A stretch of 32,000 nt of DNA, taken from the NCBI GenBank assembly GCA_963843975.1, contig CAWJMG010000001.1:960001-992000 (forward strand), in the 5' to 3' direction. The notes below the pieces were generated by a model, which saw nothing but the letters and a program-made list of their open reading frames with translations, made no database searches and had not been told where the DNA came from. Positions 1,599 through 20,457 of the stretch are shown piece after piece; the first letter of the stretch is position 1; each line of letters starts with the position of its first letter. The position numbers and the translations under genes are program-made. This stretch comes from an uncultured Actinomycetes bacterium (GTDB lineage Bacteria > Actinomycetota > Actinomycetes > S36-B12 > CAIYMF01).

Positions 1599-2761
1599 GG
1601 CGAGGCCGGCGCATGGTCGCCGAGGCGGGCGACGAGACGGTCGAGCGCCGGGCCGCGGACGAGCGAGCCGTCGCGTCCGCTGACGAACGCGTCGTCGAGC
1701 ACCGTCACGTCGCCGTCTCGCCGGGCGATGGACAGCGACGACCAACGGCGTACGCCGTCCCGCCCGCGCTCGAGATGCAGGACGACGTCGAGACCGGCGG
1801 CCATCTGCGCGTGCACGGCGGCGCGGTCGAGGCCGCCGGTGAGCGCAAGCGCCTCGAGCCGCGCGGGGACGTCGGCCGCGCTGTTGGCGTGGACCGTGGT
1901 GAGCCCCCCCTCGTGCCCGGTGTTGAACGCGGCGAGCATGTCGACCACCTCGGCGCCGCGGACCTCGCCCACCACCACGCGGTCGGGCCGCATCCGCAGC
2001 GACTGCCGCACCAGGTCGCGCAGTGTGATGGCGCCGGCGCCCTCGATGTTGGGCGGCCGCGACTCGAGCCTCACGACGTGCGGGTGGTCGGGCACGAGCT
2101 CGGCGGAGTCCTCCACCACGACGATGCGGTCGCGCGGGTCGCAGTGCGCGAGGAGCATCGAGACCCAGGTGGTCTTGCCAGTGCCCGTGCCTCCGCTCAC
2201 GATGACGGCGAGCCGCGCGCGGATCACCGCGAGGAGCCATGGTGCGAGGTCGGCCGGCATCGATCCGGCGGCGACGAGCTCGTCGAGGCTGAACGAGCGC
2301 CGCCTCGGGACGCGCAGGGACAGGCACGTGCCGCCCACCGATACCGGCGCGAGTACCGCGTGCAGTCGGGTGCCGTCGGAGAGACGGCCGTCGACGTAGG
2401 GCACGGCGTCGTCGAGGCGGCGCCCGCAGCTCGCGGCGAGCCGCTGCGCGAGCCGGCGTACGGCGGAGTCGTCGCGGAACCGGACGTCGACGCGCTCGAC
2501 TCCCGCGCCGCGGTCGACCCACACCTCGTCGGGCGCGGTGACGAGCACGTCGGTCACGCCGGGCATCCGCAGCAGCGGCTCGAGCGGGCCGGACCCGGAC
2601 AGCTCGGCCTGCAGCCGCTCGGCCTCGGCCAGGAGCGCATCACCTCCGAGCAGGAGGCCGTCCTCGCGCAGGGCACGCGCCACCTCGGTGGCGGTGGGCG
2701 CGAGGCCGGCGGCCAGGAGCCGCGAGCGGACGCGGTCGAGGACGTCGACGTCGCCGCTCAC
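1595..2761 (-). CDS. tadA: TadA/CpaF-type secretion ATPase (VirB11/GspE superfamily).
   Basis: 388 codons. Walker A is SGGTGTGKTT, the Walker B-like strand is IVVVEDSAEL, and the His-box is GHEGGLTTVHANS. The GTG at 2761 overlaps the ssd stop (GTGA). The upstream 272 codons of track ORF 1595..3577 are Arg/Gly-rich read-through. Confidence 0.9.
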   Translation of the reverse strand: MSGDVDVLDRVRSRLLAAGLAPTATEVARALREDGLLLGGDALLAEAERLQAELSGSGPLEPLLRMPGVTDVLVTAPDEVWVDRGAGVERVDVRFRDDSAVRRLAQRLAASCGRRLDDAVPYVDGRLSDGTRLHAVLAPVSVGGTCLSLRVPRRRSFSLDELVAAGSMPADLAPWLLAVIRARLAVIVSGGTGTGKTTWVSMLLAHCDPRDRIVVVEDSAELVPDHPHVVRLESRPPNIEGAGAITLRDLVRQSLRMRPDRVVVGEVRGAEVVDMLAAFNTGHEGGLTTVHANSAADVPARLEALALTGGLDRAAVHAQMAAGLDVVLHLERGRDGVRRWSSLSIARRDGDVTVLDDAFVSGRDGSLVRGPALDRLVARLGDHAPASP

Positions 2762-3819
2762 GCCGCGGCCCCGCGCATGCCGGTGGCCATGAGCGACTCG
2801 AGCAGTGCGGCGCAGACGCGGGCCAAGCGCCCGCCCGTGCCCGGCGGCTCCCCGCGGTCGAGCGCGGCCACGAGCTTGGCGTCGTACGCGATCTCGGCCG
2901 CGGCGGGCAGCTCGAGCCACTCGGCCAGCGCGGTGCCGTCGAGCCCGCCGCCGGGAACGTCGCGCACCACGAGCGACAGCGGCGCAGCACCCCGCAGTCG
3001 AGCCGCAGCACGCGCAGCGGACGACGCGCCGCGGATGTCGCCCGTCGCTACGAGCAGCACTGAGTCGCAAGTGGGCAGGACCCGCTCGGTCACGTGCGGC
3101 CGACCGTGCGGCAGGTCGACCACGACGAGGTCGAACGCGTGCCGCGCGCTGTCGAGGACGGGGTCGAGTGCGGCCAGCGGCAGGGACTCGCCTGCGCCGC
3201 GGTCGACGCTGAGCACGTGGACGCCGTGCGCGGAGGGAAGGGCTGCGCGCAGGCTCGCAGGGTCGAGGCCGGCCGTCACCTCTGCGAGGTCGCGCCACCG
3301 CGCCCCCACCTCGTCCTCGGCCGCCAGGAGCAGGTCGGCGCCTGGGCCGTCCGGGTCGGCGTCCACGAGGAGCACCGTGCCCCCCGAGCGCGCACCGACA
3401 ATGCACAAGGCCGCCGCGAGGACGCTCGCTCCGGCGCCGCCGCTGCCCGGGGCGACGCCCACGACGACGCCGGAGCCGGAGTCGCGCACCGCGCGCGCCA
3501 GCAGGTCGAGCAGCTGCGCCTCCCCCGCGGGCAGCGGCACCACGGCCTCGGCACCGAGGGCGAGCAGACCTCGCCATGGGATAGCGGAGTCGTCCGAGCC
3601 CGTCACCACCACGACGCCCGGTCGGCGGCGCAGCCCGGCGTCGAGGCAGCCGAGCACGGCGTCCTGCCCCACCACGACGTCGCCTGCCGCGCCCCAGGCC
3701 GCGCGTGCGTCCTGCCCGCGGGCCACCACGTCGAGCTCGCGCCCGGCAACCGCGGCCACGCGCCGCACCACGTCCTCGAGCACAGGGTCATCGGTCACCA
3801 GAAGCGTCGTCGCAGCCAT
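2758..3819 (-). CDS. ssd: CpaE-like ParA/MinD-family protein (actinobacterial 'septum site-determining' Ssd type).
   Basis: 353 codons from the ATG at 3819 (MAATTLLVTDDP...). An N-terminal receiver-like segment is followed by a P-loop-like region with a degenerate Walker A (VGVAPGSGGAGASVLAAAL) and DLVVVDLP. It is positioned immediately upstream of tadA, as for Rv3660c/Rv3659c. Confidence 0.75.
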   Translation of the reverse strand: MAATTLLVTDDPVLEDVVRRVAAVAGRELDVVARGQDARAAWGAAGDVVVGQDAVLGCLDAGLRRRPGVVVVTGSDDSAIPWRGLLALGAEAVVPLPAGEAQLLDLLARAVRDSGSGVVVGVAPGSGGAGASVLAAALCIVGARSGGTVLLVDADPDGPGADLLLAAEDEVGARWRDLAEVTAGLDPASLRAALPSAHGVHVLSVDRGAGESLPLAALDPVLDSARHAFDLVVVDLPHGRPHVTERVLPTCDSVLLVATGDIRGASSAARAAARLRGAAPLSLVVRDVPGGGLDGTALAEWLELPAAAEIAYDAKLVAALDRGEPPGTGGRLARVCAALLESLMATGMRGAAA

Positions 3820-3871
3820 GCGACCGACCGTCCCGACCACCACCCCCGCGGCCTCACAAAGCCCCACGAGA

Positions 3872-3911
3872 CCTGTGGACGAAACGCCGTACCCGACAAC
3901 CTGTGGACGAA
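3872..3911. promoter_or_regulatory. Perfect 13-bp direct repeat ACCTGTGGACGAA (3871-3883 and 3899-3911) in the ssd / HAD divergent promoter region.
   Basis: Read directly from the sequence. The two copies are 28 nt apart inside the 133-bp intergenic region. The same 11-mer core recurs at 105-115. Confidence 0.5.
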
Positions 3912-3952
3912 CGACCGCCGCTGTCGTCGCCGGACGCGCCTACCATCGACCC

Positions 3953-4759
3953 ATGTCCCGCAGCGCTGCGTTCTTCGACCTCGACAAGACGATCCTCGCC
4001 AAGTCGAGCTCGTTGGCGTTCGCACGCCCGTTCTACAAGGGCGGCCTGCTCGGGCGGGCCGACGTCCTCAAGAGCGCCTACGCGCAGTTCTCCTACGTCG
4101 CGTCCGGCGCCGACCACGACCAGCTCGAGTACATGCGCAAGTACATGTCCGACCTCGTGAGCGGCTGGGACGTCGAGACCGTCAAGCAGATCGTGTCCGA
4201 GACCCTCGACGAGATCGTCGACCCGATGGTGTACGAGGAGGCGGTCGACCTCATCGCGCACCACAAGGAGGCCGGTCGCGACGTCATCATCATCAGCTCG
4301 TCCGGCACCGAGGTCGTCGAGCCGATCGGCGAGCGCCTCGGCGTCGATCGGGCGATCGGCACACAGGTCGCGATCGAGGACGGCAAGTACACCGGCGAGA
4401 TCGTGTTCTACGCGTACGGCGAGGGCAAGGCCGAGGCCATGCGCGCCCTCGCCGAGGAGAACGGCTACGACCTCGCCGACTGCTACGCGTACACCGACTC
4501 CATGACCGACCTGCCGATGCTCGAGATCGTCGGCCACCCGGTCTGCGTCAACCCCGACGCGCCGCTCCGCAAGATCGCAGTCGAGCGCGACTGGCCGATG
4601 GTCGACTTCGCCCGGCCCGTCGCGATGAGGACGATGCGCGAGCGCCTCGCCCAGCTCAACACCGAGAAGAACCGCCGCACGGCGCTTCGAGTCGGCGCCG
4701 CGACGGTCGCCCTCGGCCTCGCCTGGTACGCCAGCCGCCGTCGCGGCTCGGCGGCGTAG
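3953..4759 (+). CDS. HAD-IB (SerB-like) family hydrolase with a C-terminal membrane anchor.
   Basis: 268 codons from the ATG at 3953. HAD motif I is FFDLDKT, followed by IIISSSG, the GEGK lysine motif and YTDSMTDLPML. The C-terminal hydrophobic helix is ALRVGAATVALGLAWYA. It is divergent from ssd, as for Rv3661. Confidence 0.85.
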   Translation: MSRSAAFFDLDKTILAKSSSLAFARPFYKGGLLGRADVLKSAYAQFSYVASGADHDQLEYMRKYMSDLVSGWDVETVKQIVSETLDEIVDPMVYEEAVDLIAHHKEAGRDVIIISSSGTEVVEPIGERLGVDRAIGTQVAIEDGKYTGEIVFYAYGEGKAEAMRALAEENGYDLADCYAYTDSMTDLPMLEIVGHPVCVNPDAPLRKIAVERDWPMVDFARPVAMRTMRERLAQLNTEKNRRTALRVGAATVALGLAWYASRRRGSAA

Positions 4760-4768
4760 CAGGCAGTC

Positions 4769-6247
4769 ATGGAACCGTCCCCTCCGGTGCACGGGTGGGG
4801 ACGCGCGCGCGGCGGCAGCGCCGACACCGGCGCGAGGTACGGCGACGCCCTCGACGGGCGGCTCGACCTCGACCGCCTCGACGACGACCAGACGCTCGCC
4901 ATCGTCGGCAGCGACGACTCGCCGCTCCTGTCCGAGCGCCTCCGCGACGCGCTCGAGAGCGCCGGCGTGCTGCCGTGGATCCGTGGTCACCGCGCTGCGA
5001 GCGGCCTCGTCGCGACGGCGGCCGTCGTCGCGCTGGTCGCCACCGGGGCATGGTGGGCTGGGCGCCCGCAGCCCCTCGCCGAACCGAGGGTCACAGTCAC
5101 GACAGGCGGCAACGAGGCCGCGCGCCTCATCGTCGACGTCGCCACCGGCGAGGTCACGGCCATCACGCAGCTCGTGCTGCTCACCTCCGACGAGAAGCCC
5201 GGCACCACCGTGAGCAGCCTGGGCGTCGTCGGCCCCGGCCTCTCCGACCCTCAGTCGCGCGTGATCGAGGCTCAGCCGCGCGACACCGTCACGGGCGCCG
5301 TCACCTCGCAGGTCGACTGCGCCGGCACCAGCACCACCGCCGAGGTCCTTGCCGCCCGCGCCTCGGACTACCGCGTCCTCATCCACCGCACGTCGAGCAC
5401 GGGCGAGGTCCGCGACGACAGCGTGCCGCTGACCGGTGGCGAGGAGTGGATGAACGCCGTCCGCGCCGCGTGCGTGCAGGTCGCGGCCGACCGCGACCTC
5501 GCCGTGGCACGCGTCGAGGCACAGCCGCTCGCGGGCAACATCGCCACCGACGTGCGCCTGCTCGTCGTCAACCGGTCCGCCACCCCGTGGCGCGCGCTGC
5601 GCGTATCGACCGCCGCCGGTCCCACGATCGTGTCGTCCGGGGCCGACGTCGACCTGCCGCCAGGCGGCCGCGCGTGGGTTCCGATCCGGCTCTGGCCCGA
5701 CGACTGCGCCGACCCGGTCGCCCCGCTCGCCGAAGGGGTGCCACTCCGCGCCACGCTCGTCGACGGCGCGGCCTCGGCCGAGACGCGCGCGCCCACGTTC
5801 ACGCTGCCGATGGACCCGGCCGCCCTCGACACCGTCGGCCGCGCCCTGATCGCCACCTGCACCGCGACCCCTCCCACGGCCACGGTCGTGCGGGCCCGCG
5901 TCGCCGGAGGCACGACCGACACCTCGGCCGGCGCCATCACCATGTACGTCGACGTCGCCGCCCCCGATGCCGAGCTCGTCGAGGTCGACGACCTCCCGGC
6001 CGGCCCGGGCGGTCGGGTGTCGGCCTTCGAGTCGCCGATGCTGGTCAGCAACGGCGTGGCCCGGCTGCACCTGCGCTGGGAGCTGCCGCAGTGCTTCGCC
6101 ATCCTCTCGGCGGGCGCGCCGGCGCTGCGCGTGCGGCTCGTCGTCGGCGACGTACGGCGGCCCTACCGGCTCGAGCTGCGCGGCGAGAGCCTGGTGGAGA
6201 ACGTCAACCGCGCGTGCGGCCGGACGGTCTCCGGAGTGGTCAAGTAG
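4769..6247 (+). CDS. Uncharacterised N-in single-pass membrane protein, tandem paralog 1 of 4.
   Basis: 492 codons with strong G/C third-position bias. It has the DGRLDLDRL motif, LPWIRGHR followed by a TM helix (LVATAAVVALVATGAWWA), a GPG motif, VDC...DYRV, and six ectodomain Cys. The start is uncertain (ATG 4769 or GTG 4787). It begins 9 nt after the HAD stop. Confidence 0.8.
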   Translation: MEPSPPVHGWGRARGGSADTGARYGDALDGRLDLDRLDDDQTLAIVGSDDSPLLSERLRDALESAGVLPWIRGHRAASGLVATAAVVALVATGAWWAGRPQPLAEPRVTVTTGGNEAARLIVDVATGEVTAITQLVLLTSDEKPGTTVSSLGVVGPGLSDPQSRVIEAQPRDTVTGAVTSQVDCAGTSTTAEVLAARASDYRVLIHRTSSTGEVRDDSVPLTGGEEWMNAVRAACVQVAADRDLAVARVEAQPLAGNIATDVRLLVVNRSATPWRALRVSTAAGPTIVSSGADVDLPPGGRAWVPIRLWPDDCADPVAPLAEGVPLRATLVDGAASAETRAPTFTLPMDPAALDTVGRALIATCTATPPTATVVRARVAGGTTDTSAGAITMYVDVAAPDAELVEVDDLPAGPGGRVSAFESPMLVSNGVARLHLRWELPQCFAILSAGAPALRVRLVVGDVRRPYRLELRGESLVENVNRACGRTVSGVVK

Positions 6248-6307
6248 CCCGGTCTCGGGTGCGCTTCGGCCCTGGCGCGCCTACCGTCGGCCCGTGGTGA
6301 TGCCGTC

Positions 6308-7807
6308 ATGACCGACGACGACCGGCTCGAGCTCGACGAGCACGGCCGCGTCCTCGACGCGTCCGGCAGCACCACGGTGCTGGACCTGACCGACCCCGAG
6401 GCGACCGAGGAGCTCACCTCCAACCCCGTCCAGCGCTGGGTCGACTCGGCCGTGTCGCCCTTCGTCGCCCGCCACCGCACGGCCGTCCGCGCGACGGCGC
6501 TCGTGGTCGGCGTGGTCCTCGTCGGCTCCGTCTGGTGGGTGTCGCGACCGCCGTACGTGCCGCCGACCTTCGACGTCGCCCTCGCCGACGCCGTGCTCGA
6601 GGGCAACTCGATCGGCGGCCCCGAGATCTCGCCCGACGGCGCCTTCTCCGTCGCGTTCGTCGCCCGTGCACGGACCATCGGCGAGACCCTGACGATCACC
6701 GGGCTCACCGGGCCCGGGCTCACCGACAGCACGGCGGAGGCATCGCCGGTCACGTCGGCCGCCGAGCAGCGTGTGGTGCTCGGGGCGCGCGTCGACTGCA
6801 CCGCGCCGGGCCTGGTGGACGCTCGGCCGTCCTCGTACCGGCTGACGGCCACCGGGGCGAGCAGCGGCGGCGACCCGGAGGCGGGCTCGGTGCCGCTGGG
6901 TCTGCCGGGCGAGGAGATCACGCGGCTCGACGAGGCGATCACCGACTGGTGCCTCGCCTCCATGGCACCGACCGCGATCACCGTCTCGTCGGTGCAGGCC
7001 ACCGCCGTGCCCGGCACGCCACTGGCCGACGTCAGCATCAGCATCGTCAACACCTCGCCCCAGCCGCTCTCCGTGCGCACCGAGCGCACGGCGGGGGTGA
7101 GCGTCGAGGTCGACCGCTCCCCGGCCGTCCTCGTCGAGCCCGGCGCCGGAGCGACCGTCGCGACGCGCGTGCTGCTGCACGACTGCGCAGCCAGCCCGGC
7201 GCTCACGCCGTTGGCCTCGCTGCGCAACCCCAACGGCGCCACGACCTCTCCGGGCCTCACGCTCGGGCTCGCCCTCGGCGACCGCACGCGCGTCGCGTCG
7301 TACGCCGTGCCCGGTGCCGACGTCCTCGCCGACCGGCTCGCGGGCGCGTGCACGGGCGCCACGGGCGTGACCGCGCGGATCGGCGACATCGGCAGCGCGG
7401 CTGTCGACGAGCGCGGGCGATGGACCGTCAACGTGCTCGTGGACGCGCGCTCCGACGGCATGGGCATGACGTTCGGCCGCGAGCACTTCAGCGGCGGCGA
7501 CTCCGGTGTCGACTCCGTGCTCACGAGCCAGACCTCGCTCGAGCGCGACGGCGAATGGACCTTCGGCCCGGCCCGGCTCGACGGCGGCGCCGGGCAGATG
7601 CTCGTGCCGGTCAGCGGGGGCAGCTGCTCGTCGGTGCCCACGGCCACCCCGCCGCGTCTCGCCGTCCGCGTTCTCATGCCCGACCGCTCAGTACACCCCT
7701 ACGAGGTGCTGGTGGACGACGTCCGGCTGCTGAGGGCCGTCGCGGCTGCCTGCGCCGTCGATCTCGACCCGGCCACGGCGAAGGCGCTCGGCTGGCGGTC
7801 GACGTGA
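6308..7807 (+). CDS. Uncharacterised N-in single-pass membrane protein, tandem paralog 2 of 4.
   Basis: 499 codons. It has DDRLELDE, FVARHR followed by a TM helix (ALVVGVVLVGSVWWV), GLTGPGL, VDC...SYRL, and six ectodomain Cys in positions equivalent to the other copies. Confidence 0.8.
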   Translation: MTDDDRLELDEHGRVLDASGSTTVLDLTDPEATEELTSNPVQRWVDSAVSPFVARHRTAVRATALVVGVVLVGSVWWVSRPPYVPPTFDVALADAVLEGNSIGGPEISPDGAFSVAFVARARTIGETLTITGLTGPGLTDSTAEASPVTSAAEQRVVLGARVDCTAPGLVDARPSSYRLTATGASSGGDPEAGSVPLGLPGEEITRLDEAITDWCLASMAPTAITVSSVQATAVPGTPLADVSISIVNTSPQPLSVRTERTAGVSVEVDRSPAVLVEPGAGATVATRVLLHDCAASPALTPLASLRNPNGATTSPGLTLGLALGDRTRVASYAVPGADVLADRLAGACTGATGVTARIGDIGSAAVDERGRWTVNVLVDARSDGMGMTFGREHFSGGDSGVDSVLTSQTSLERDGEWTFGPARLDGGAGQMLVPVSGGSCSSVPTATPPRLAVRVLMPDRSVHPYEVLVDDVRLLRAVAAACAVDLDPATAKALGWRST

Positions 7808-7854
7808 TCGCGTGCGTCGCGCGGCCGCGTCCGGTCGCGACGTAAGGTCCGGGC

Positions 7855-9339
7855 ATGGGGGGACGGACCGACAGCGACGGCCGCCTCGATCTCGACGAGC
7901 TCGGCTCGGTGATCGAGTCTGCCGACGTCGCCCCGGCGGTCGAGATGCTCGAGGACGGCATCGGCCGTCCGACCGTCGCCGAGCGCCTGGAGGCCGTGGG
8001 CCTCACCCCCTGGGTCCGGCGGCACCGCGTGCTGACCGGTGCCGTCTGCACCGCCGCGGCCTTCGGGCTCGTGGCGGTGGCCGTGCACCTCGCGACGATG
8101 CCGCCGCCCTTCGACCCCTCGGTCGTCGCCACCATCACGCCTGTCAGCACCCCGAACTCGACCATCAGCCTCGACGGCCCCGATGGCGACGTCGGGTCAG
8201 GCTGGTTCCAGGTCGACGGCGTACCTGACGGCGACCGGTTGGTCATCACCGGCGTCCACGGCCCCGGTCTCGGAGCCACCGTGGCGTCGGAGCAGCTCGG
8301 CGGCTGGTTCGGCGCGACCCCCGTGCAGGGCGCACAGGTCTGGTCGGCGCGTGCGGTCATCGACTGCCACGACGGTGCCCTGCAGCCGAGCGAGGACGAC
8401 TACCGGCTGACACTGCGCAAGACCGACCGCTCGGGCCGCACGTCCGACGTCGCCGTGCCGCTGCCCACCGGCTCGGCGACGTGGGCCGGCGCCGTAGCTG
8501 GCGTGTGCTGGCAGCGGACGGCGATCGGCAGCCTCGCGATCACCGAGCTCAGCACCCGCACGGATCTCGCTCGCGCGCAGGTGAGTCTCGGCATCCGGCT
8601 GGAGAGCTCGCTGCCCGTCGACGCCATCGTCGGCACCGAGCTCGAGGAGCTCGGGTCGGTGCGCGTGGGCCAGACCTTCCGCTCCACGATCTCCTCCCGC
8701 CGCACCATCGACACCGAGGTGCTGCTGTCCGTGCTCAGCTGTCGGGATGCCACCGCACCGCAGCCGCTGTTCCCGCAGTCCGCGTCGTACCGCGTGGTCT
8801 CACCGGAGCCGGGTCTCGGCTTCGCGCTGCAGTCGACCGACTCCCAGCAGATCTCGTACGTGCCCGTGCGCTTCACGCCCGAGCAGACGCGCGACGTCGA
8901 CCGTGCGATCGGCGAGGTCTGCGCAGGAGCGCCACCCGTCACGGTCGCGGCAGTCGGCACGCCGCAGGTCAACGCTCTCGGCGGCGCGTTCTCCGAGCAG
9001 GAGATGCGGCTGCAGCTCGACGTGCGCCGACCGGTCGACCGCATGGCGCACATCGAGATACCCGGCGATCCGGGCCTGTCCAACGTCTACTACTCCGTGG
9101 CCGACATCGACGCCGGCAAGGGCGGGCCGGCCGCGCTCATCTGGCGTTTCACCTGCCAGAACACCCCCACCCCGCCGATGGTCACCGTGACCGTCACGGA
9201 CGGTCGCCGCTCCTGGCCGATGCGCACCGCGCTCACCGACGAGTCGGTCGAACGGGCCGTCCTGCGTGCCTGCCCGTCGCAGAGCGCCGCATCACTCGCC
9301 GCGAACGGCTGGCCCGCTCGAGACCTGGGTGCCGGATGA
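7855..9339 (+). CDS. Uncharacterised N-in single-pass membrane protein, tandem paralog 3 of 4.
   Basis: 494 codons. It has DGRLDLDELGSVIE, TPWVRRHR followed by a TM helix, GVHGPGL, IDC...DYRL, and six ectodomain Cys plus one Cys in the TM helix. AAGG lies upstream of the ATG. Confidence 0.8.
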   Translation: MGGRTDSDGRLDLDELGSVIESADVAPAVEMLEDGIGRPTVAERLEAVGLTPWVRRHRVLTGAVCTAAAFGLVAVAVHLATMPPPFDPSVVATITPVSTPNSTISLDGPDGDVGSGWFQVDGVPDGDRLVITGVHGPGLGATVASEQLGGWFGATPVQGAQVWSARAVIDCHDGALQPSEDDYRLTLRKTDRSGRTSDVAVPLPTGSATWAGAVAGVCWQRTAIGSLAITELSTRTDLARAQVSLGIRLESSLPVDAIVGTELEELGSVRVGQTFRSTISSRRTIDTEVLLSVLSCRDATAPQPLFPQSASYRVVSPEPGLGFALQSTDSQQISYVPVRFTPEQTRDVDRAIGEVCAGAPPVTVAAVGTPQVNALGGAFSEQEMRLQLDVRRPVDRMAHIEIPGDPGLSNVYYSVADIDAGKGGPAALIWRFTCQNTPTPPMVTVTVTDGRRSWPMRTALTDESVERAVLRACPSQSAASLAANGWPARDLGAG

Positions 9340-10787
9340 GCGACGACGGCCGCCTCGACCTCGACGACCTGGGCTCGGTCATCGAGGGCGCGAGCACCAT
9401 CGACCAGCCCAGCGACGTCGTCGGCGACGACTCCGGCGCCACGTGGGGCGAGCGCCTCGAAAGCTCCGGCATCACGCCCTGGATGCGGCGTCATCGCGTC
9501 GCCCTGGCCGCAGCCACCGCCGCCGCCGTCGCGATCGGCATCGGGGGTACGGCGTGGCTGCGGGCGCAGCCGCCGCCGCGGCGCGACGTCGCCATCACGG
9601 CTGTCCCCGCCTCGGTCGACGAGTACAGCGGTCCCGGGCTGTCCTTCGCGGACAACGGGATCGTGATGGCGGCGTACCTGGTGCACACCGATGACCCCGC
9701 CACCTCCTTGCACGTCGAGGGGCTCGAAGGGCCGGGCATCCGCGCCAGCACGGTCGGAGCGCCGCACCCGAACGGCAACCAGGCCGCGGTGCTCGTCCGT
9801 GCCCTCATCGATTGCGGCGGCGACCTCCCGCCGTCAATCGCTTCCGACTACCGCCTCCGCGTGACGGCGACGGACGCATGGGGCCGCTCGCGCGAGGAGA
9901 TGGTCAGTGCGGACTCCGCGGAGGCGAGCTGGCCGCAGCTCGTGATGCAGATGTGCCTGCAGACCGCCGTATTCAGCGACGTCACGATGACCGGCCTCCG
10001 CGCGAGCGCCGATCAGGGCGCGGGCGCCGTACGCCTCGAGGTCGACCTTGCGAGCACGCTCCCCGTCTCGGCCGAGGCGCAGTTCGAGGGGATCGACACC
10101 GGCCAGCTCCTCCTGCCCTACGACCCTGCCCCGGTCGAGCTCGCGAGCGGCACCTCCGAGACCGTGAGCGGCAGCCTCCAGGTGCGCGACTGCTCCGCCG
10201 GCACGCCGGCCCTCCCAGGCGTGACCGTGCCGGACGATCCCCAGGACCCGCGCAGCTACTCCAACGGCGACGGCATCGGCGTCTACGTGGTCACGCCCGA
10301 CCGTCAGGCAGGTGCGCTGCTGCCGCTCCTGTTCGACAAGGCGCAGTCCGCCGAGGTGCAGCGTGCGATCGGCGAGATCTGCCGTGACGCACCGACGGTG
10401 GCGGTGTCCGACCTCGCGGTGGTGCGGGTGGTCGATGACACGGCCGCGGCTACGACGACCCTCATCTTCTCGCTTCGCGCCAGGGTGGCGGGCGATCGCG
10501 TGATGAAGGTGGCCGTCGGCCCCGACCCTGCGTTCAGCCCGTCCGACCCCGGCCTGATCGAGTGGACCACGCTCCCTGCCGGCGGCGGCATCGGCCAGGT
10601 CGCGTGGACCTTCTCCTGCCAGGCCAACCCGCAGCCGCCGTCGCTCGACGTCCGCTTCGTCGACGGCCTCAGAGCCACGCCGGTGCGCATCCCCCTCGAC
10701 CAGCTGGTCGTTGCGCCCGAGGTCAGCGGGGCCTGCCCCCTGCTCACCACGGCCACGCTCAACGAGCAGGGCTGGTCCCTCCCCTGA
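9336..10787 (+). CDS. Uncharacterised N-in single-pass membrane protein, tandem paralog 4 of 4.
   Basis: 483 codons. The ATG at 9336 overlaps the paralog-3 stop (ATGA). It has DGRLDLDDLGSVIE, TPWMRRHR followed by a TM helix, GLEGPGI and IDC...DYRL. The cysteines are at residues 160, 207, 286, 349, 428 and 467. Confidence 0.8.
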   Translation: MSDDGRLDLDDLGSVIEGASTIDQPSDVVGDDSGATWGERLESSGITPWMRRHRVALAAATAAAVAIGIGGTAWLRAQPPPRRDVAITAVPASVDEYSGPGLSFADNGIVMAAYLVHTDDPATSLHVEGLEGPGIRASTVGAPHPNGNQAAVLVRALIDCGGDLPPSIASDYRLRVTATDAWGRSREEMVSADSAEASWPQLVMQMCLQTAVFSDVTMTGLRASADQGAGAVRLEVDLASTLPVSAEAQFEGIDTGQLLLPYDPAPVELASGTSETVSGSLQVRDCSAGTPALPGVTVPDDPQDPRSYSNGDGIGVYVVTPDRQAGALLPLLFDKAQSAEVQRAIGEICRDAPTVAVSDLAVVRVVDDTAAATTTLIFSLRARVAGDRVMKVAVGPDPAFSPSDPGLIEWTTLPAGGGIGQVAWTFSCQANPQPPSLDVRFVDGLRATPVRIPLDQLVVAPEVSGACPLLTTATLNEQGWSLP

Positions 10788-10792
10788 CCTAC

Positions 10793-10821
10793 CCACCGGT
10801 TCGCGGCACGCCGAACCGTGG
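10793..10821 (+). terminator. GC-rich hairpin 6 nt after the paralog-4 stop.
   Basis: CCAC(C)GGTTCG pairs with CGAACCGTGG (10 bp, one bulged C, 8-nt loop). There is no U-tract. Confidence 0.4.
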
Positions 10822-10824
10822 AAG

Positions 10825-11225
10825 GCGCTCGACGAGTGCGCTACGTGACTGGTCTACCGGAGATCGGACGGATTCCGAGATCGGCGGAAAGTCAAGGGGC
10901 GACAGGACTTCCGCGATCGGCAGAACGGGAGTACACCAGGACTACGGGAGCCGGCCGTCGGGGCCGACCAGCGGATTCGAGAGGCGACCGAGAAGACCAG
11001 AGCACGGCCCACCCGGGATACCCACGCTGCGGACAACCCACGTAACGGGCGTCACGGCCGGGAGAGCGGCACGCCCGCACCCGACCGGACGATTACCTCG
11101 GCGCACTGCTCGCCCGGGCACCGTGCGGCGACGACGCCTCCTGCCTGCAGGGGCGTCGTCTGCTGTCCGGGTCGTTTCCCGCACCTTGCCCAGGATCCTG
11201 AGCGAGAACAGGCCGGTTCCTACGC
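10825..11225 (+). ncRNA. Candidate Ms1/MTS2823-like (6S-like, RNAP-core-binding) sRNA locus. Boundaries and strand were not determined from the sequence.
   Basis: This is a 455-bp gap between convergent genes, unusually long for this gene density. GC is visibly lower, and the only ORFs are short and Arg/Gly-rich. There are several imperfect long hairpins, for example 10875-10893 pairing with 10905-10920, and a 9-bp stem GACGACGCC/GGCGTCGTC at 11130-11160. From memory, MTS2823/Ms1 lies between Rv3661 (HAD) and Rv3662c in M. tuberculosis, in the same orientation as Rv3661. Confidence 0.35.
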
Positions 11226-11246
11226 AGCGACCTGGGTGAGGTCGCT
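11226..11246. terminator. 7-bp hairpin (AGCGACC / GGTCGCT, 7-nt loop) abutting the stop of the Fic-like gene. It is possibly a bidirectional terminator.
   Basis: Read directly. The last stem base is the first base of the minus-strand stop codon at 11246-11248. Confidence 0.3.
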
Positions 11247-12046
11247 CAGACGAGGTCGGCGAGGATGCGCCGGGTCTCGGCCGCGCCGACGCGTACGGCG
11301 TCGGCGTGCAGCACGATCCAGCGCGCGAGGCCCTCGGGCTCGCCGCTCGCGTAGCCGCGCAGGGCCTCGGCGTACGCCGGCCTGCCAGCAGCGAAGAGCC
11401 CGGCCTCGGGCACGGTGAGGCCGTCCGGGTCGAGGCCGCGCGCGGCGAGCACGAGCCGCGTGGTGGCCCGCGCGACGAGCCCAGATCCCCACGCGAACGG
11501 GCGGAGCACCGCGATCTCGCCGTGCGCGATCGCGGCCACGACGAGCGCAGGCGCCTCGGTCGGGGCGGTCAGCAGGGCGGCGAGCTGCGTCGTACGGCGG
11601 GACGCCTCGGCGTACGGCGGCAGCGTGCCCTGGCGCAGCGGGTCGTCGGCCTCGTCGCTGGTGCGCAGGCGGCCGCGGAGGTCGTCGGCGACGAAGCCGG
11701 TGGAGGCGACTGCATGCAGCCGCGAGAGCGCCTGCAGCGGCGCGCGGCCGAACGTGTCGACGAGCAGCGGCGTCTCGACCTGCACGGCGAGCGCGGCGGC
11801 GACGACGCGGCCGATGGGTGATCCGTCGAGCGCGTCGCCCGAGACGAGCGCGTCCGGTCGCACCTCGGCGCCGTCGATGGCGGCCGACGCCCACCCGCCG
11901 CGCATGCGCGAGGCCGCGACGACCTCGCCAGCACGGGCGCGCACGCCGCGGTCCCACAGCACCTCGTCGACGGCCGTCCGCGCCGCGGTGACGGCGTCGG
12001 CGACACCGGGCAGGTCGACCAGCGGGGCGAGCACGTCGTCAGGCAC
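11246..12046 (-). CDS. Fic/DOC-fold protein with a degenerate active-site motif (Rv3662c-like conserved actinobacterial protein).
   Basis: 266 codons, GTG start. The segment AHGEIAVLRPFAWGSGLVARATTRLVLAARGL aligns to the Fic core H..F..IHPF.DGNGR..R, with the catalytic H replaced by R, N by S and R by L. An upstream SAAIDGAEV resembles the (S/T)xxxE(G/N) inhibitory-helix motif. Confidence 0.55.
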   Translation of the reverse strand: MPDDVLAPLVDLPGVADAVTAARTAVDEVLWDRGVRARAGEVVAASRMRGGWASAAIDGAEVRPDALVSGDALDGSPIGRVVAAALAVQVETPLLVDTFGRAPLQALSRLHAVASTGFVADDLRGRLRTSDEADDPLRQGTLPPYAEASRRTTQLAALLTAPTEAPALVVAAIAHGEIAVLRPFAWGSGLVARATTRLVLAARGLDPDGLTVPEAGLFAAGRPAYAEALRGYASGEPEGLARWIVLHADAVRVGAAETRRILADLV

Positions 12047-12154: not shown

Positions 12155-13360
12155 GTGATCTCGGGGGCTGGAAGGGCTGGGGACGGGGGCGGGCGGCGCT
12201 ACGGTCGGCGCGTGCCTCCGGCCTTCACCGCAGTCGTCGTGGCGATCGTGCTCGTCGCGATCGCGGCGGCCGCGCTGCGCGTCCTGCGCGTGGGCGACCT
12301 CGGCAGCGAGGCCGACAAGGCGACGTACGCGACGCTCAACCGGGCGTCGCAGGCGGCCCCGGCACTGCGCGAGGGCCTCACCGAGGACGCCGCGGAGGAC
12401 GCCGCGCGGCACCTGCACGCACTGCTGGGCTCCGAGGGCTTCGCGATCACCGACACCGAGCGCGTGCTCGCCACCGACGGCACGGTGGCCGAGGGGCTCG
12501 CGATGGACGCCGTGCGCGACGTGCTCGCCAGCGGCCGCGCGGCAGTCGCCCGGGACGTCGGCCCGCTCGGGCACGCGGCCGTCGTCGCGCCTCTCGTCGT
12601 CGACGACCGCGTGGTCGGCACCCTCGCCGCCGTCACGCACGACCCGACGGCGAACCTCGTGCGCGCCACCACCGAGGTCGCGCGCTGGGTGTCGTCCCAG
12701 CTCGAGCTGGCCGAGCTCGACGCCTCGCGCGCCCGGCTGGCCGAGGCCGAGGTGCGGGCGCTGCGCGCGCAGATCTCGCCGCACTTCATCTACAACGCGC
12801 TCACGGCCATCGCGTCGTACGTGCGCACCGATCCCGAGCACGCGCGCGAGCTGCTGCTGGAGTTCGCCGACTTCACCCGCTACTCGTTCCGGCGGCACGG
12901 CGACTTCACGACGCTGGCGGAGGAGCTGCGCTCGATCGACCGCTATCTCACGCTCGAGCGCGCCCGGTTCGGCGACCGGCTGCAGGTGACGGTGCGGGTC
13001 GCCCCCGAGGTGCTGCCCGTCGCGGTGCCCTACCTCTGCCTGCAGCCCATCGTCGAGAACGCCGTACGGCACGGGCTGGAGGGCAAGACGGGCCCCGGGC
13101 GCATCACGATCCTCGCCGAGGACGCCGGCAGCGAGTGCCACATCTCGGTCGAGGACGACGGCATCGGCGCCGACCCCGAGCAGATCCGGCTCGCGATGAC
13201 GGGTGAGGGCGACAGCGACTCCATCGGCGTCGGCAACGTCGATGAGCGCCTCCGGAGCGTCTTCGGCGACGAGTACGGCCTCGTGGTCGAGACTGGGCCC
13301 GGTCTCGGGACCAAGGTCTCGATGCGCGTCCCGAAGTACGCCCCAGGAGTCCACGCATGA
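12155..13360 (+). CDS. LytS/YehU-type sensor histidine kinase (single TM + GAF-like + His_kinase + HATPase_c) that lacks the usual 5TM-Lyt sensor module.
   Basis: It has ISPHFIYNALTAIASYV (LytS-type phosphoacceptor region), an N-box QPIVENAVRHG, and G-boxes EDDGIGA and GPGLGT. Only one N-terminal hydrophobic helix is present, followed by FAITDTERVLATDG...VVAPLVVDDRVVGTL (GAF-like). The start is uncertain (GTG 12155 or GTG 12212). Confidence 0.85.
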   Translation: MISGAGRAGDGGGRRYGRRVPPAFTAVVVAIVLVAIAAAALRVLRVGDLGSEADKATYATLNRASQAAPALREGLTEDAAEDAARHLHALLGSEGFAITDTERVLATDGTVAEGLAMDAVRDVLASGRAAVARDVGPLGHAAVVAPLVVDDRVVGTLAAVTHDPTANLVRATTEVARWVSSQLELAELDASRARLAEAEVRALRAQISPHFIYNALTAIASYVRTDPEHARELLLEFADFTRYSFRRHGDFTTLAEELRSIDRYLTLERARFGDRLQVTVRVAPEVLPVAVPYLCLQPIVENAVRHGLEGKTGPGRITILAEDAGSECHISVEDDGIGADPEQIRLAMTGEGDSDSIGVGNVDERLRSVFGDEYGLVVETGPGLGTKVSMRVPKYAPGVHA

Positions 13361-14124
13361 GCGACGAGAACGCGACGCCGGCTGCGGGCCTGCGGGTCCT
13401 CGCCGTCGACGACGAGGCGCCCGCCCGCGCGGAGCTCGCCTACCTCCTCGGCCGCGACGAGCGCGTGGCCGAGGTGCAGACCGCGTCGGACGGCGCCGAG
13501 GCGCTCCGCATGCTCGAGGCCACGCCGTACGACGCGCTCTTCGTCGACATCCGCATGCCGGGCCTCGACGGTCTCGACCTCGCACGCGTGCTGCGCCGGT
13601 TCACCTCGCCGCCGGCGGTCGTGTTCGTCTCGGCGTACGACCAGCACGCGCTCGAGGCGTTCGACCTGCGCGCGGTCGACTACCTCATGAAGCCCGTTCG
13701 TGACGAGCGGCTGGCCGAGGCCGTCGGGCGGGTGCTCGAGGCGCGCGGTCGCGCGGTGCCCGCCGCAGCGGCTCCCCAGGACGACGACGAGACGATCGCG
13801 GTCGAGCTCGGCGGCGTCACCCGCTTCGTCAAGCGCTCGGACGTGAAGTACGTCGAGGCGCACGGCGACTACGCCCGGCTCGTGACCGACGACGGCCGGC
13901 ACCTCGTGCGCGTCTCGCTGACGCTGCTCGAGGAGCAGTGGGCGTCGGCCGGCTTCGTGCGCATCCACCGACGCTGGCTCGTGCCCCTGACCGCGATCGA
14001 CGAGGTGCGCACCGACGAGGGCCGCGTGAGCGTGCGCGTGGGCGACGCCGTCCTGCAGGTGTCGCGGCGGCACACGCGCGAGCTGCGCGACCGTCTCGTG
14101 CGCAGCGCCCGCCCGGGGCGCTGA
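13357..14124 (+). CDS. LytR/AlgR-family response regulator (receiver + LytTR DNA-binding domain).
   Basis: 255 codons. The ATG overlaps the kinase stop (ATGA). The receiver has VLAVDDE and LFVDIRMPGLDG. The LytTR region is VKYVEAHGDYARLVTDDGRHLVRVSLTLLEEQ...FVRIHRRWLV. Confidence 0.9.
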   Translation: MSDENATPAAGLRVLAVDDEAPARAELAYLLGRDERVAEVQTASDGAEALRMLEATPYDALFVDIRMPGLDGLDLARVLRRFTSPPAVVFVSAYDQHALEAFDLRAVDYLMKPVRDERLAEAVGRVLEARGRAVPAAAAPQDDDETIAVELGGVTRFVKRSDVKYVEAHGDYARLVTDDGRHLVRVSLTLLEEQWASAGFVRIHRRWLVPLTAIDEVRTDEGRVSVRVGDAVLQVSRRHTRELRDRLVRSARPGR

Positions 14125-14127
14125 GGC

Positions 14128-14505
14128 GTGGACGAGCGGCCGGCCAAGCGCGTCACGGTCACGCACCCGCGCACGGCCGCTGCACGCGGCACAGCCCGCC
14201 GTGGCGTACGTCGCGACGTCCGCGAGCAGACCGCCCTCGGCGTCACCCTGATCACGTCGCTGCGGCGCGCGCAGCTGCGGCTCGCGGTGCTGGTCGGGGC
14301 CGGCCTCGTCGTCGTGCTCGGCGGGATCCCGTTGGTGTTCCTGGCCTTCCCCGGCCTGCGCGACCTGCGGATCGCCGGCCTCTCGCTCGGCTGGATCGTG
14401 CTGGGCGTGCTGGTGTTCCCGGCCATCTGCGGCGCCGCGTGGTGGTACGTGCGCGCGGCCGAGCGCACCGAGTCCGAGTTCGTCGACCTCGTCGAGCGGT
14501 CGTGA
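14128..14505 (+). CDS. Small two-TM membrane protein, DUF485/YjcH-like in topology.
   Basis: 125 codons. The GTG lies 3 nt after the regulator stop and 4 nt before the transporter start. Two hydrophobic helices are followed by WWYVRAAERTESEF, parallel to AYTRYADKHIDPE of the clear DUF485 protein at 16292. The family assignment is tentative. Confidence 0.5.
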   Translation: MDERPAKRVTVTHPRTAAARGTARRGVRRDVREQTALGVTLITSLRRAQLRLAVLVGAGLVVVLGGIPLVFLAFPGLRDLRIAGLSLGWIVLGVLVFPAICGAAWWYVRAAERTESEFVDLVERS

Positions 14506-14509
14506 CGCC

Positions 14510-16012
14510 ATGACGTCGTGGTGGCCGGTCGCCGCGATCGCGGCCGTGGTGGTCGCCACGATCGTGATCGGGCTCTTCGGCGTGCGCGTGTCGCGCACGA
14601 CGTCCGACTTCCTCGTCGCCTCGCGCTCGGTGAGCCCGCTGCTCAACGCGTCAGCGATCGGCGGCGAGTACCTCTCGGCCGCGTCGTTCCTCGGTATCGC
14701 CGGCCTCGTGCTCACGTACGGCGTCGACATGCTGTGGTTCCCGGTCGGCTACACCGTCGGCTACCTGGTGCTGCTGATCCTCGTCGCGGCGCCGCTTCGG
14801 CGATCGGGCGCCTACACGCTGCCGGACTTCGCCGAGATGCGCACGCGCTCGCGCAAGGTGCGGCTCACGTCGTCGGCGCTCGTCGTCCTCATCGGATGGC
14901 TCTACCTGCTGCCTCAGCTTCAGGGCGCCGGCATCACGCTCGAGGTGCTCACGGGCGCGCCGTCGTGGGTCGGGTCGATGGTGGCGGCGGTGGTCGTCGC
15001 GATCACCGTGGCGATCGGCGGCATGCGCTCCATCACGGTCGTGCAGGCGTTCCAGTACTGGCTCAAGCTCGTGGCCATCGCGCTCCCCGCCGTGCTGATC
15101 GTCGCGGCCTGGTACCGCGACGGCGCACCGGTGTTCACCGACGGCCCGTGGGGCGAGCCGCTGTCGGGCTACGGCGGCCGCGAGTACCCGCTCTACTCGA
15201 CGTACTCGATCCTGCTCGCGACCTTCCTCGGCACCATGGGCCTGCCGCACGTGCTCGTGCGCTTCTACACCAACCCCGACGGCCGGGCGGCCCGCCGTAC
15301 GACGCTCGCGGTGCTCGGCCTGCTGAGCCTGTTCTACGTCTTCCCGCCCGTGCTCGGCGCGCTCGGCCGGGTGTACGCGCCCGAGCTCGCAGGCACCGAC
15401 CGCGCCGACACCGTGGTGCTGCTGCTGCCCTCCCTCGTCTTCGACGGGTGGCTCGGGCAGTCGCTCTCGGCGCTCGTGGCCGCCGGAGCGTTCGCGGCGT
15501 TCCTGTCGACCGCCAGCGGCCTGTCGGTGTCGGTGGCCGGCGTCCTGAGCCAGGACCTGCTGCAGCACGAGGGCCGTCTCGGTGACGGCGTACGCCGCTT
15601 CCGCCTCGGCACGGTGATCGCCGTCCTCGTGCCGTTCCTTCTCGCGCTGGTGGCGGGCCGCGCGAACCTCGCGCAGACGGTCACGCTCGCGTTCGCCGTC
15701 GCGGCCTCGACGTTCTGCCCGCTGCTCGTGCTCGGCATCTGGTGGCCGCGCCTCACGACCCGTGGCGCCCTCGCAGCCCTCTGGGTCGGCGGCGGCACGG
15801 CGCTCGGCGCGGTCGTGGTCGTGCTCGCGGCGGGGCCGTTCACCGGTGTCGCGGGCGCCCTGCTCGGCCAGCCCGCGGCCTGGACCGTGCCGCTCGCGTT
15901 CCTCGCCGCGATCGTGGTCTCGCTGCGCGGGGGCGGCGAGCGCGTCCGACGTACGGCGGACGCCGCGATGACGCGCCTGCATGCCCCGGAGGAGCTCGAG
16001 ACGAGGCTCTGA
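14510..16012 (+). CDS. Sodium:solute symporter family transporter (ActP paralog; substrate unknown, likely a monocarboxylate).
   Basis: 500 codons and polytopic. [35 protein letters not shown] matches the ActP N-terminal signature seen in the 16697 gene. Confidence 0.85.
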   Translation: MTSWWPVAAIAAVVVATIVIGLFGVRVSRTTSDFLVASRSVSPLLNASAIGGEYLSAASFLGIAGLVLTYGVDMLWFPVGYTVGYLVLLILVAAPLRRSGAYTLPDFAEMRTRSRKVRLTSSALVVLIGWLYLLPQLQGAGITLEVLTGAPSWVGSMVAAVVVAITVAIGGMRSITVVQAFQYWLKLVAIALPAVLIVAAWYRDGAPVFTDGPWGEPLSGYGGREYPLYSTYSILLATFLGTMGLPHVLVRFYTNPDGRAARRTTLAVLGLLSLFYVFPPVLGALGRVYAPELAGTDRADTVVLLLPSLVFDGWLGQSLSALVAAGAFAAFLSTASGLSVSVAGVLSQDLLQHEGRLGDGVRRFRLGTVIAVLVPFLLALVAGRANLAQTVTLAFAVAASTFCPLLVLGIWWPRLTTRGALAALWVGGGTALGAVVVVLAAGPFTGVAGALLGQPAAWTVPLAFLAAIVVSLRGGGERVRRTADAAMTRLHAPEELETRL

Positions 16013-16230
16013 GCCGTAGCGGCACCGCTGTGGAAACGCCTGTGCCGCAACTGTTCACGCGACCGACACGTCTGCGGGACGCGCCTGCCGCTCAGCGCAC
16101 GCAGCCGACCGTTCGGCGCAGCCCGACGGGCCGGCAGCCGCCTCTCGGCTCTCGACCACCACCTCACGGCGAGGTGGTCCCCGCTTCCCGTTCCGCCCCG
16201 GTGCCGTGGCACCCACACTCCTCAACGCCG

Positions 16231-16246
16231 GGTGACTCAGGTCACA
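16231..16246. promoter_or_regulatory. CRP/GlxR-type operator candidate GGTGA-CTCAGG-TCACA.
   Basis: It matches 9 of the 10 specified positions of TGTGA-N6-TCACA. It lies 46 nt upstream of the DUF485 GTG in a 279-bp intergenic region. A Crp gene is encoded at 28756. Confidence 0.5.
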
Positions 16247-16291
16247 CGCGCACTGTCCATCTCGATCGGACGTCCGACCGGAGGAGTCCCA

Positions 16292-16693
16292 GTGAGCTCT
16301 ACCCAAGACATGCACGAGGATCCGTACCTCGTCGTCGAGCGGAGCCCCAAGTTCCGTGACCTGCGCAGCCGCTACCGCCGCTTCATCTTCCCGATGGGCG
16401 CACTGTTCATGGCCTGGTACCTGCTGCTCATCTACTGCGCGGGATGGCAGCGCGAGTGGATGGCCAAGCCCGTCTTCGGCTCGATCACCATCGGCTTCGT
16501 GTTCGCGCTGCTGCAGTTCATCAGCACGTTCGCGATCGCGATCGCCTACACGCGGTACGCCGACAAGCACATCGACCCCGAGGCCACCGAGCTCAAGGCC
16601 GAGGTCGAGCGCCTCGACGCGCTGCGCGGCGCTCACCCCACCCACACGTCGGACGAGGAGCTCCTCGAGGCCGACCTGAGCACGGGAGCCTGA
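16292..16693 (+). CDS. DUF485 (YjcH-like) inner-membrane protein, the usual partner of ActP.
   Basis: 133 codons from the GTG at 16292, preceded by GGAGGAG. It has SPKFRDLRSRYRRFIFPMGALFMAWYLLL plus a second TM helix. It sits immediately upstream of actP. Confidence 0.85.
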   Translation: MSSTQDMHEDPYLVVERSPKFRDLRSRYRRFIFPMGALFMAWYLLLIYCAGWQREWMAKPVFGSITIGFVFALLQFISTFAIAIAYTRYADKHIDPEATELKAEVERLDALRGAHPTHTSDEELLEADLSTGA

Positions 16694-16696
16694 CCA

Positions 16697-18382: not shown

Positions 18383-18498
18383 TCGCACGCTGAGCGGGGC
18401 AGTCCCCACGTGCAACCTCCCTGCAACCCCACCCTGCGGTAGAAACGACATCGGATCTCCCCGTCGGCACCGTGCCGACCCCAGCACCGAGGAGCGAC

Positions 18499-20457
<1,959 letters not shown>

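Follow-up and report, generated by a model that had tools for sequence, protein, structure and literature searches.

Which proteins are encoded by the four tandem genes, named here P1 to P4, that follow a HAD-IB family hydrolase gene in an uncultured Actinomycetes bacterium, and what might these proteins do there? The question is raised by a stretch of 32,000 nucleotides (contig CAWJMG010000001.1, positions 960,001 to 992,000), which was analysed at its full length and is called the window below. We found that in one lineage the array extends the conserved, putative transcription unit of the HAD-IB phosphatase by one to five bitopic envelope paralogs, of which the window carries four. Their positions, lengths in amino acids (aa) and scores against the family hidden Markov model (HMM) are as follows.

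4769..6247, + strand: P1, type A family member, 492 aa; family HMM E 5e-107, position-1 clade of the tree.
6308..7807, + strand: P2, type B family member, 499 aa; family HMM E 2e-118, single-copy relatives B-like.
7855..9339, + strand: P3, type C family member, 494 aa, with an extra Cys65 within the transmembrane (TM) helix; family HMM E 3e-132.
9336..10787, + strand: P4, type C family member, 483 aa, its start overlapping the P3 stop (ATGA), the fastest-evolving copy; assigned by family HMM, with ratios of nonsynonymous to synonymous substitution rates (dN/dS) of 0.22 and 0.46.

A preliminary description, made from the letters alone, had reported four diverged, colinear paralogs in a probable operon, and all four same-strand open reading frames (ORFs) were present as it gave them, with the same gaps and the same ATGA overlap. 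P2, P3, and P4 are 24–26% identical to P1 and colinear with it in alignment, and the likeness of the four is not a matter of chance, since they scored E 1e-107 to 1e-133 against the family HMM. In this window of 70–78% guanine plus cytosine (GC), the GC of the four ORFs was 0.91–0.94 at third codon positions (GC3) and 0.56–0.59 at position 2, which is the pattern of genuine high-GC genes. The HAD gene (3953–4759) ends in TAG and the following ATG is at 4769, and the successive gaps from HAD to P1, P2, P3, and P4 are 9, 60, 47, and −4 nt. The P3/P4 overlap was also found in the related loci L001 and L003, and the distance from HAD to the array is 9–13 nt in the window, L001, L002, and L003. Given these tight and conserved gaps, the overlap, and the lack of any terminator-like site, a single operon of HAD and P1–P4 is plausible. 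A consensus scan of positions 3700–11400 for promoters and terminators found nothing, a result that is uninformative for a 74% GC actinomycete.

The proteins belong to an undescribed family whose predicted fold is of a known class, the Ig-like beta-sandwich. An exhaustive HMM search among 1.84 billion cluster representatives yielded 308 member clusters at E<=1e-3; among the best 150 of these 308, non-fragment members measured ~470–560 aa and gave a single full-length match with no domain fusions. A word-indexed homolog search retrieved ~21 relatives, every one named "hypothetical," and a second word-based search with a profile added next to no new members. No match to P1–P4 was obtained in Pfam-A 2025 at E<=1, and the Pfam scan of 55 relatives gave only scattered matches (E>=0.003). 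The lone match in NCBIfam release 20 was that of P4 to an "anti-sigma factor" entry (NF052375), at 14.9 bits against a cut-off of 100. PADLOC 2.0 had no match for P1–P4, and a role in anti-phage defence was rejected on this ground. The best hit of a sequence-profile search against the PDB was a 26-residue stretch of T-cadherin (E 0.26). The view that no named family applies was thus borne out.

The design of the family was described from structural models and alignments. The AlphaFold2 model of P4, computed from an 18-sequence alignment, reached a predicted local distance difference test (pLDDT) score of 83.6, and module 2 modelled by itself reached 94.0. In the full model, a disordered N terminus is followed by two short helices (residues 37–43 and 46–52), the TM helix (54–77), and three beta-sandwich modules, each of which closes with a helix (199–215, 335–349, and 456–466). 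The parts of P4, with their coordinates in the window, are listed below.

9342..9383, + strand: aa 3–16, N-terminal cytoplasmic peptide DDGRLDLDDLGSVI (motif 1), predicted to be disordered; pLDDT below 50, 62% mean pairwise identity in the family.
9444..9497, + strand: aa 37–54, amphipathic juxtamembrane helices WGERLESSGITPWMRRHR (motif 2), with HR at their end; helices in the model, 42% identity in the family.
9495..9566, + strand: aa 54–77, TM helix, followed by an invariant Pro-rich spacer (P79, P80); hydrophobicity, alignment, and model.
9585..9980, + strand: module 1, aa 84–215, beta-sandwich plus helix, with the GPG motif and C160/C207; model, alignment, and hhalign.
9981..10391, + strand: module 2, aa 216–352, beta-sandwich plus helix, with C286/C349; single-module model (pLDDT 94.0) and hhalign.
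10392..10784, + strand: module 3, aa 353–483, beta-sandwich plus helix, with C428/C467; model and hhalign.

When the full model was compared by Foldseek with PDB and BFVD, and module 2 with PDB, these models returned only generic Ig/FN3-like multi-domain proteins. For module 2, the best E was 1.1e-3, with TM-scores of 0.3–0.46 and identities of 8–15%; the top matches had probabilities near 1.0. The best matches comprised the archaeal AAP pilin 8q30, PapD-like chaperones, MSP domains, macroglobulin MG domains, domain III of HAP2/fusexin, RbmA, and the C-terminal barrels of transglutaminases. The family also resembles multi-Ig-domain surface stalks. With E values no better than 1e-3 and no significant sequence match, this is a similarity of fold rather than membership of any of these groups, and a C-terminal helix bearing the second cysteine, as in the P1–P4 modules, was not seen as a feature of the matched domains.

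The preliminary description had listed six shared motifs, six equivalent ectodomain cysteines, and a single TM helix with the N terminus inside, and had suggested three disulfide-stabilised modules outside. Each motif was found as written in P1–P4, and the cysteine columns proved invariant in family alignments of 18 and of 55 members. The cysteines lie at positions 184/235/313/364/442/483 in P1, 164/215/293/348/440/482 in P2, 171/218/296/356/434/473 in P3 (in addition to C65 within its TM helix), and 160/207/286/349/428/467 in P4. The third ectodomain cysteine of P3 is two residues off in the four-way alignment and in register in the family alignment. Among 59 members taken from loci, 57 have exactly six cysteines in the ectodomain and none in the cytoplasmic part. 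Apart from these six, G132 of the GPG turn is the only ectodomain residue invariant among the 55 members, and no conserved His, Asp, Ser, Glu, or Lys hinting at catalysis was found in the ectodomain in either alignment.

Within each module of the P4 model, the first cysteine comes after the end of a strand (C160, C286, C428) and the second in, or just past, the closing helix (C207, C349, C467), so the same strand–Cys/helix–Cys pattern recurs in all three. When the modules were aligned with each other by hhalign, the P values were 8.8e-4 (modules 1 and 2), 9.9e-5 (1 and 3), and 1.6e-5 (2 and 3). Each of these alignments is colinear and has both cysteines in register, and the ectodomain therefore reads, at the level of models and profiles, as a single module repeated three times, with a probable disulfide in each copy. 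The pairs C160–C207, C286–C349, and C428–C467 would form these intramodule disulfides, as judged from their invariance and their extracytoplasmic location. Models and hhalign thus agree with the three modules proposed earlier, the disulfides themselves being predicted.

P1–P4 have one hydrophobic peak each, at about residues 55–80, and in the 59 members lysine plus arginine averaged 3.4 over the 15 residues ahead of the TM helix versus 1.3 behind it. This positive-inside bias and the lack of cytoplasmic cysteines support the predicted N-in/C-out topology.

Conservation is distributed unevenly along these proteins. In the same 59 members, mean pairwise identity was 62% in the N-terminal peptide (DGRL[DE]LD..G.V), 42% in the juxtamembrane motif, 25% in the linker, 24% in the TM helix, and 23–27% in the three ectodomain modules. 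The DGRL[DE]LD peptide lies 2–30 residues from the N terminus of the family members in a region predicted to be disordered, and by its pattern of conservation it bears the signature of a short linear docking motif common to all paralogs.

In a distance tree, the copies grouped by their place in the array, with orthogroup A at position 1, B at position 2, and C from position 3 on, and lineage-specific duplications fell within type C, to which both P3 and P4 belong. The earlier picture of four diverged copies holds as far as divergence goes; it does not hold for equal divergence, as there are three old orthogroups and P3 and P4 share the third. Compared with their orthologs in Longivirga, P1 is 69%, P2 63%, P3 43%, and P4 52% identical, versus 87–92% for the neighbours HAD (92%), FicL, the Fic-like protein (91%), the histidine kinase, the response regulator, and TadA, and 67% for Ssd.

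Between P4 and a 93% identical ortholog, dN/dS was 0.22; between P4 and its ortholog in locus L024 (67% identical), it was 0.46 overall and 0.56–0.60 in modules 2 and 3. For P3 and its L024 ortholog (87% identical), it was 0.26, and for FicL in the same genome pair 0.11; the P3 and P4 genes at window 7855–10787 correspond to L024 953–3885. Judged by these rates, purifying selection on the P1–P4 genes is clear, with the ectodomains, above all those of type C, only loosely constrained. Fast divergence of the ectodomains relative to the neighbouring genes also fits a surface-exposed location. The sharp difference in rate between the adjacent type C paralogs P3 and P4 could be explained by relaxed or diversifying selection, or by recombination.

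The setting of the array is far better known than the array itself. Its main features in the window are given here.

2758..3867, − strand: Ssd, a TadZ/CpaE-like ParA/MinD ATPase, divergent from HAD; TIGR03815, 274.9 bits versus a cut-off of 154.
3872..3952, + strand: common ssd/HAD control region; two CCTGTGGACGA boxes at a distance of 28 nt and, 6 nt ahead of the HAD ATG, the −10-like hexamer TACCAT.
3953..4759, + strand: HAD-IB family hydrolase that ends in a hydrophobic tail, a backbone gene at the head of the putative operon; Pfam HAD 2.9e-36, TIGR01490 207.7 bits versus a cut-off of 98.3.
10880..11165, + strand: Ms1 RNA homolog at the downstream edge of the insertion, ends approximate; 61 invariant columns in 14 loci, alignment to S. 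coelicolor Ms1, and a hairpin.
11246..12046, − strand: Fic-like gene, 266 aa, convergent with the array, on the other flank of Ms1; Pfam Fic 21.6 bits (cut-off 24), PADLOC SoFic 2.4e-6.

The HAD protein begins with MSRSAAFFDLDKT, ends with ...ALRVGAATVALGLAWYASRRRGSAA, and carries the FFDLDKT motif (DxDxT) at residues 7–13. On the minus strand, ssd is followed by tadA, tadB, and tadC (Pfam T2SSE and T2SSF matches). The Fic-like gene evolves slowly and was kept at this position in each locus examined; it is the one annotated as "oxidoreductase" or "Fic" beside Ms1 elsewhere.

The 458-nt region between P4 and the Fic-like gene (10788–11245) is non-coding, with a GC3 of ~0.75. Across 14 loci it nevertheless has 61 invariant columns, although the family proteins beside it are only 25–50% identical, and it ends in a hairpin (~11128–11160) with compensatory changes. 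No Rfam match to this intergenic RNA was obtained at the gathering threshold or at E<=10, and the homolog was identified through synteny and alignment to the published Ms1 sequence (supplement of PMC9130861). The RACE-verified S. coelicolor Ms1 (scr3559) aligned with the window region over 66 invariant columns, with the common core GAGCAYGG...GGG.ACCCACGC..CG...TWACGGGC. By its flanks, allowing for the inserted array, and by its similarity to the verified Ms1, the region 10880–11165 is identifiable as an Ms1 RNA. An ORF of 225 aa (10562–11239, + strand) over the end of P4 and Ms1 is almost certainly not a gene, having poor codon bias (GC3 ~0.75) and no family match.

Ms1 (MTS2823) lies between Rv3661 (HAD) and Rv3662c in M. 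tuberculosis (PMC3207917), and most Actinobacteria have it between a HAD-IB hydrolase gene and an oxidoreductase or Fic gene; Sporichthya is among the genera for which it has been predicted by synteny (PMC9130861). The flanks of the described loci (Rv3661–MTS2823–Rv3662c in M. tuberculosis; SCO3558–scr3559 in S. coelicolor), the divergent Ssd/Tad genes included, are those of the window (PMC3207917; PMC9130861). In the described species Ms1 directly follows HAD, whereas here a 6-kb block of four genes parts the two. Since Ms1 is found just past the array in the window and directly after HAD elsewhere, the array is, by gene order, inserted precisely between HAD and Ms1, as the preliminary description had suspected from the order in M. 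tuberculosis.

Related loci were found with a single pattern taken from the 18-sequence alignment, and the resulting list of at least 17 further loci is a sample, not a census. In all 17 sampled, an array of one to five copies lies between HAD and the convergent Fic-like gene, and ssd and tadA are divergent upstream of HAD wherever the contig extends that far. These loci come from Longivirga aurantiaca and from metagenome-assembled genomes and metagenome contigs labelled Nanopelagicales, Actinomycetes, or Micrococcales, and the range of the family is a narrow lineage of actinomycetes around Longivirga (Sporichthyales), most of it uncultured. The array-less relatives keep Ssd–HAD–FicL. Both the copy number of the homologs and their linkage to the HAD/Ssd/Tad locus thus agree with the lineage-specific block in a conserved backbone that had been proposed.

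In three array-less loci, L020 (9001–10636), L021 (9001–10750), and L022 (9001–10783), one of them labelled freshwater metagenome, HAD is only 28–64 nt from the next gene, which is Fic-like in the first two and AbiEi-like in the third; with so short a gap, the Ms1 gene as well as the array is missing at that site. In L025, from a lineage of 66% GC, a single family member (9037–10449) follows HAD and is itself followed by Ms1 and the Fic-like gene. It keeps the six cysteines, its N-terminal motif is degenerate (GERRLVFDEHGRV), and the arrangement may be near the ancestral single-copy state; in the tree the protein branches at the base of type B, where the deep branches are tentative. A 78-aa minus-strand gene called in this locus (10521–10757) likewise lies over the Ms1 core.

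The region upstream of HAD offers hints on its control. Paired boxes (CCTGTGGACGA / yCTGTGGAsrA) occur on the + strand, 27–28 nt apart, at 3872–3882 and 3900–3910 between ssd and HAD, and again at 105–115 and 133–143, upstream of a minus-strand flp-like gene with its start at ~14. Most related loci have the same pairs at the two sites, and relaxed CyTGGGGAC versions occur at the ssd/HAD site of L020 and L022, which lack the array. The boxes may serve the tad operons and HAD in common, as a regulator site or promoter element. Just ahead of the HAD start, loci that have the array and loci that lack it alike conserve CCTACCATCGAcccATG (3936–3955), and the position of TACCAT, 6 nt before the ATG, suggests a leaderless transcript of HAD, and of the array with it.

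What could such proteins do at the membrane? Our composite reading, to which we hold tentatively, is that they form a non-enzymatic, hetero-oligomeric envelope scaffold docked by its N-terminal peptides to a cytoplasmic partner; the structural part of this reading is secure and the functional part is a guess. The ectodomain would be a rigid, disulfide-clamped scaffold or binding surface projecting from the membrane into the wall, and it is read as non-enzymatic because none of its invariant residues is of a catalytic type. Types A, B, and C would assemble as a hetero-oligomer rather than serve as redundant copies, as the fixed A–B–C gene order, the tight spacing, and the ATGA coupling suggest. 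Because the N-terminal peptide is common to all types and far better conserved than the ectodomain, it would probably dock all subunits to a single partner in the cytoplasm. The likeliest candidate is the HAD phosphatase, putatively co-expressed, whose hydrophobic tail would place its catalytic domain at the same membrane face as the family N termini; a tail placing HAD at the inner membrane face has likewise been stated for MSMEG_6173 (PMC9130861). The divergently encoded Ssd is the alternative.

Several observations weigh against this scaffold. HAD, Ssd, and Tad are found without the family throughout Actinobacteria, so their adjacency to the array is weak as an argument for a functional link; relatives with a 72–79% identical HAD show the order Ssd–HAD–FicL–acs without an array, and in array-less relatives the HAD tail and length are unchanged. 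Type A is missing from L005 and L017, and L025 has a single copy; with a copy number of one to five and a dispensable type A, a fixed A+B+C complex cannot be obligatory. Moreover, the disulfides, the hetero-oligomerisation, and the docking partner are all points that we infer.

The alternative that survives best, which we nevertheless consider unlikely, is that the copies are independent surface receptors or adhesins acting singly, with ectodomains that diversify under pressure from phages, competitors, or substrates and an N terminus needed only for insertion or sorting. Copy numbers of one to five with lineage-specific duplications of type C would be expected of such proteins, as would the fast divergence of the ectodomains (the dN/dS of 0.46 for P4 and of 0.56–0.60 for its modules 2 and 3, set against the 0.11 of FicL), and the fold is matched by Ig-like domains of adhesins, pilins, and chaperones. 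The overall dN/dS is, however, below 1, and types A and B are well conserved (63–69%), in an order that is fixed across deep splits, which is unusual for free-running receptor families. A disordered motif of 14 residues that lies 50 residues ahead of the TM helix and retains 62% identity exceeds the needs of insertion, and the family scans of P1–P4 and the 55 relatives gave no sortase, lipobox, or known adhesin domain.

Improbable, in our judgement, is a role as accessory envelope components of the neighbouring Tad/Flp pilus machine, comparable to that of PilN/PilO or GspL/GspM, in which the N-terminal peptide would bind Ssd or TadA and the stalks would guide the pilus through the thick wall. 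In the sampled loci the array always adjoins ssd–tadA–tadB–tadC–flp, and the paired CCTGTGGACGA boxes common to the ssd/HAD and flp-like upstream regions hint at co-regulation. The build is also PilN-like: PilN/PilO and GspL/GspM are bitopic, N-in, encoded as tandem paralogs, and adjoin type IV filament genes, and the short conserved cytoplasmic N-peptide by which PilN docks to an ATPase-like protein has a counterpart here, a likeness in working principle only. There is no sequence similarity, and the three predicted Ig-like beta-sandwiches with their cysteine pairs set the family apart from PilN/PilO, which are not known to have this fold. No Pfam match to PilN, PilO, RcpC/CpaB (RcpC/SAF), or the TadE-like domains of TadE/TadF/TadG was found in P1–P4 or the 55 relatives, in one of which a T2SS-T3SS_pil_N match (E 0.067) was noise. 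The array runs on the opposite strand, coupled to HAD rather than to the tad genes, and it is missing from most Tad-bearing actinobacteria; in relatives without the family the Tad/Ssd locus is intact and the boxes are conserved.

The scaffold also has far-reaching versions, which we regard as long shots. The proteins might be a wall-spanning hetero-oligomeric stalk, plugged via the N-terminal peptide into Ssd/TadA, and so the missing "alignment" part of the actinobacterial Tad/Flp machine; or they might be a surface apparatus, acquired by one lineage, that is controlled by the HAD "morphological differentiation" phosphatase.

Very unlikely, in turn, are transmembrane signal transducers, either anti-sigma-like proteins or one-component sensors, in which a stimulus at the stalk would alter binding of the N-peptide to HAD, a sigma factor, or RNA polymerase. 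The layout is typical of anti-sigma factors in actinobacteria, in which a short part inside the cell leads through a TM helix and a Pro-rich spacer to an ectodomain, and the cytoplasmic peptide is conserved in all copies. The weak NCBIfam match of P4 (E 0.02) covers only residues 50–95, that is, the TM helix and the Pro-rich region, and with its score far below the cut-off the anti-sigma assignment was rejected. Neither a zinc-binding nor any other anti-sigma domain was found, nor was a sigma factor gene alongside, and it would be unusual for an operon to hold three to five sensors that are paralogs. Ms1 and LytS/LytTR are regulatory neighbours, but they are backbone genes that are present without the array too.

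Least probable is a long, cleaved Tat-type export signal that would leave the mature proteins released or wall-associated: although P3 and P4 have an Arg-rich RRHR immediately before the hydrophobic stretch, the RR pair is not kept in the family (RGHR in P1, ARHR in P2, RAHR or RTHR in orthologs; H53 and R54 are the conserved residues), the residues after RR misfit S/T-R-R-x-F-L-K, the helix is ~24 residues long in the model, and an invariant Pro-rich spacer takes the place of a conserved AxA-type cleavage site, and a Tat signal peptide was rejected on these grounds.

In its arrangement, the proposed scaffold has another parallel in the Mce-associated membrane proteins (Mam/Mas) of Actinobacteria, accessory proteins that form tandem arrays of 2–4 diverged, N-in, single-pass members on a conserved operon. 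To our knowledge, these differ from the P1–P4 family in size and ectodomain, and we know of no six-cysteine pattern in them. The context of the family is HAD/Ms1, not mce, and no Pfam family matches P1–P4.

We take the window to be syntenic with the Rv3657c–Rv3676 region of M. tuberculosis. Its order is tadC, tadB, tadA, and ssd (− strand), HAD (+ strand), the array, the Fic-like gene (− strand), LytS/LytTR, DUF485/SSF transporters, acs, and nhaA, and farther along a CvpA–trypsin fusion, a redoxin gene, nth, an RsiG-like gene, and crp. The stretch 12155–18301 (+ strand) encodes a LytS-like histidine kinase and a LytTR regulator, followed by two pairs of DUF485 and sodium:solute symporter genes (14128–16012 and 16232–18301). 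With the acetyl-CoA synthetase gene that comes after the two pairs (18472–20457), this resembles a duplicated actP/yjcH-type acetate uptake module under two-component control.

The array thus adds to the Actinobacteria an undescribed protein family of unusually regular design, three homologous modules with a cysteine pair in each, and a domain that is suitable for a database entry. Its practical value is modest for now, as the group is narrow and mostly uncultured and there is no pointer to a specific activity. Longivirga aurantiaca CGMCC 4.7317 is cultured and has the same four-gene array, which offers an experimental route. The array stands within one of the most conserved loci of the Actinobacteria, whose protein genes are still functionally obscure even in M. 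tuberculosis and Streptomyces, and an add-on coupled to HAD could help to reveal what the HAD phosphatase does at the membrane.

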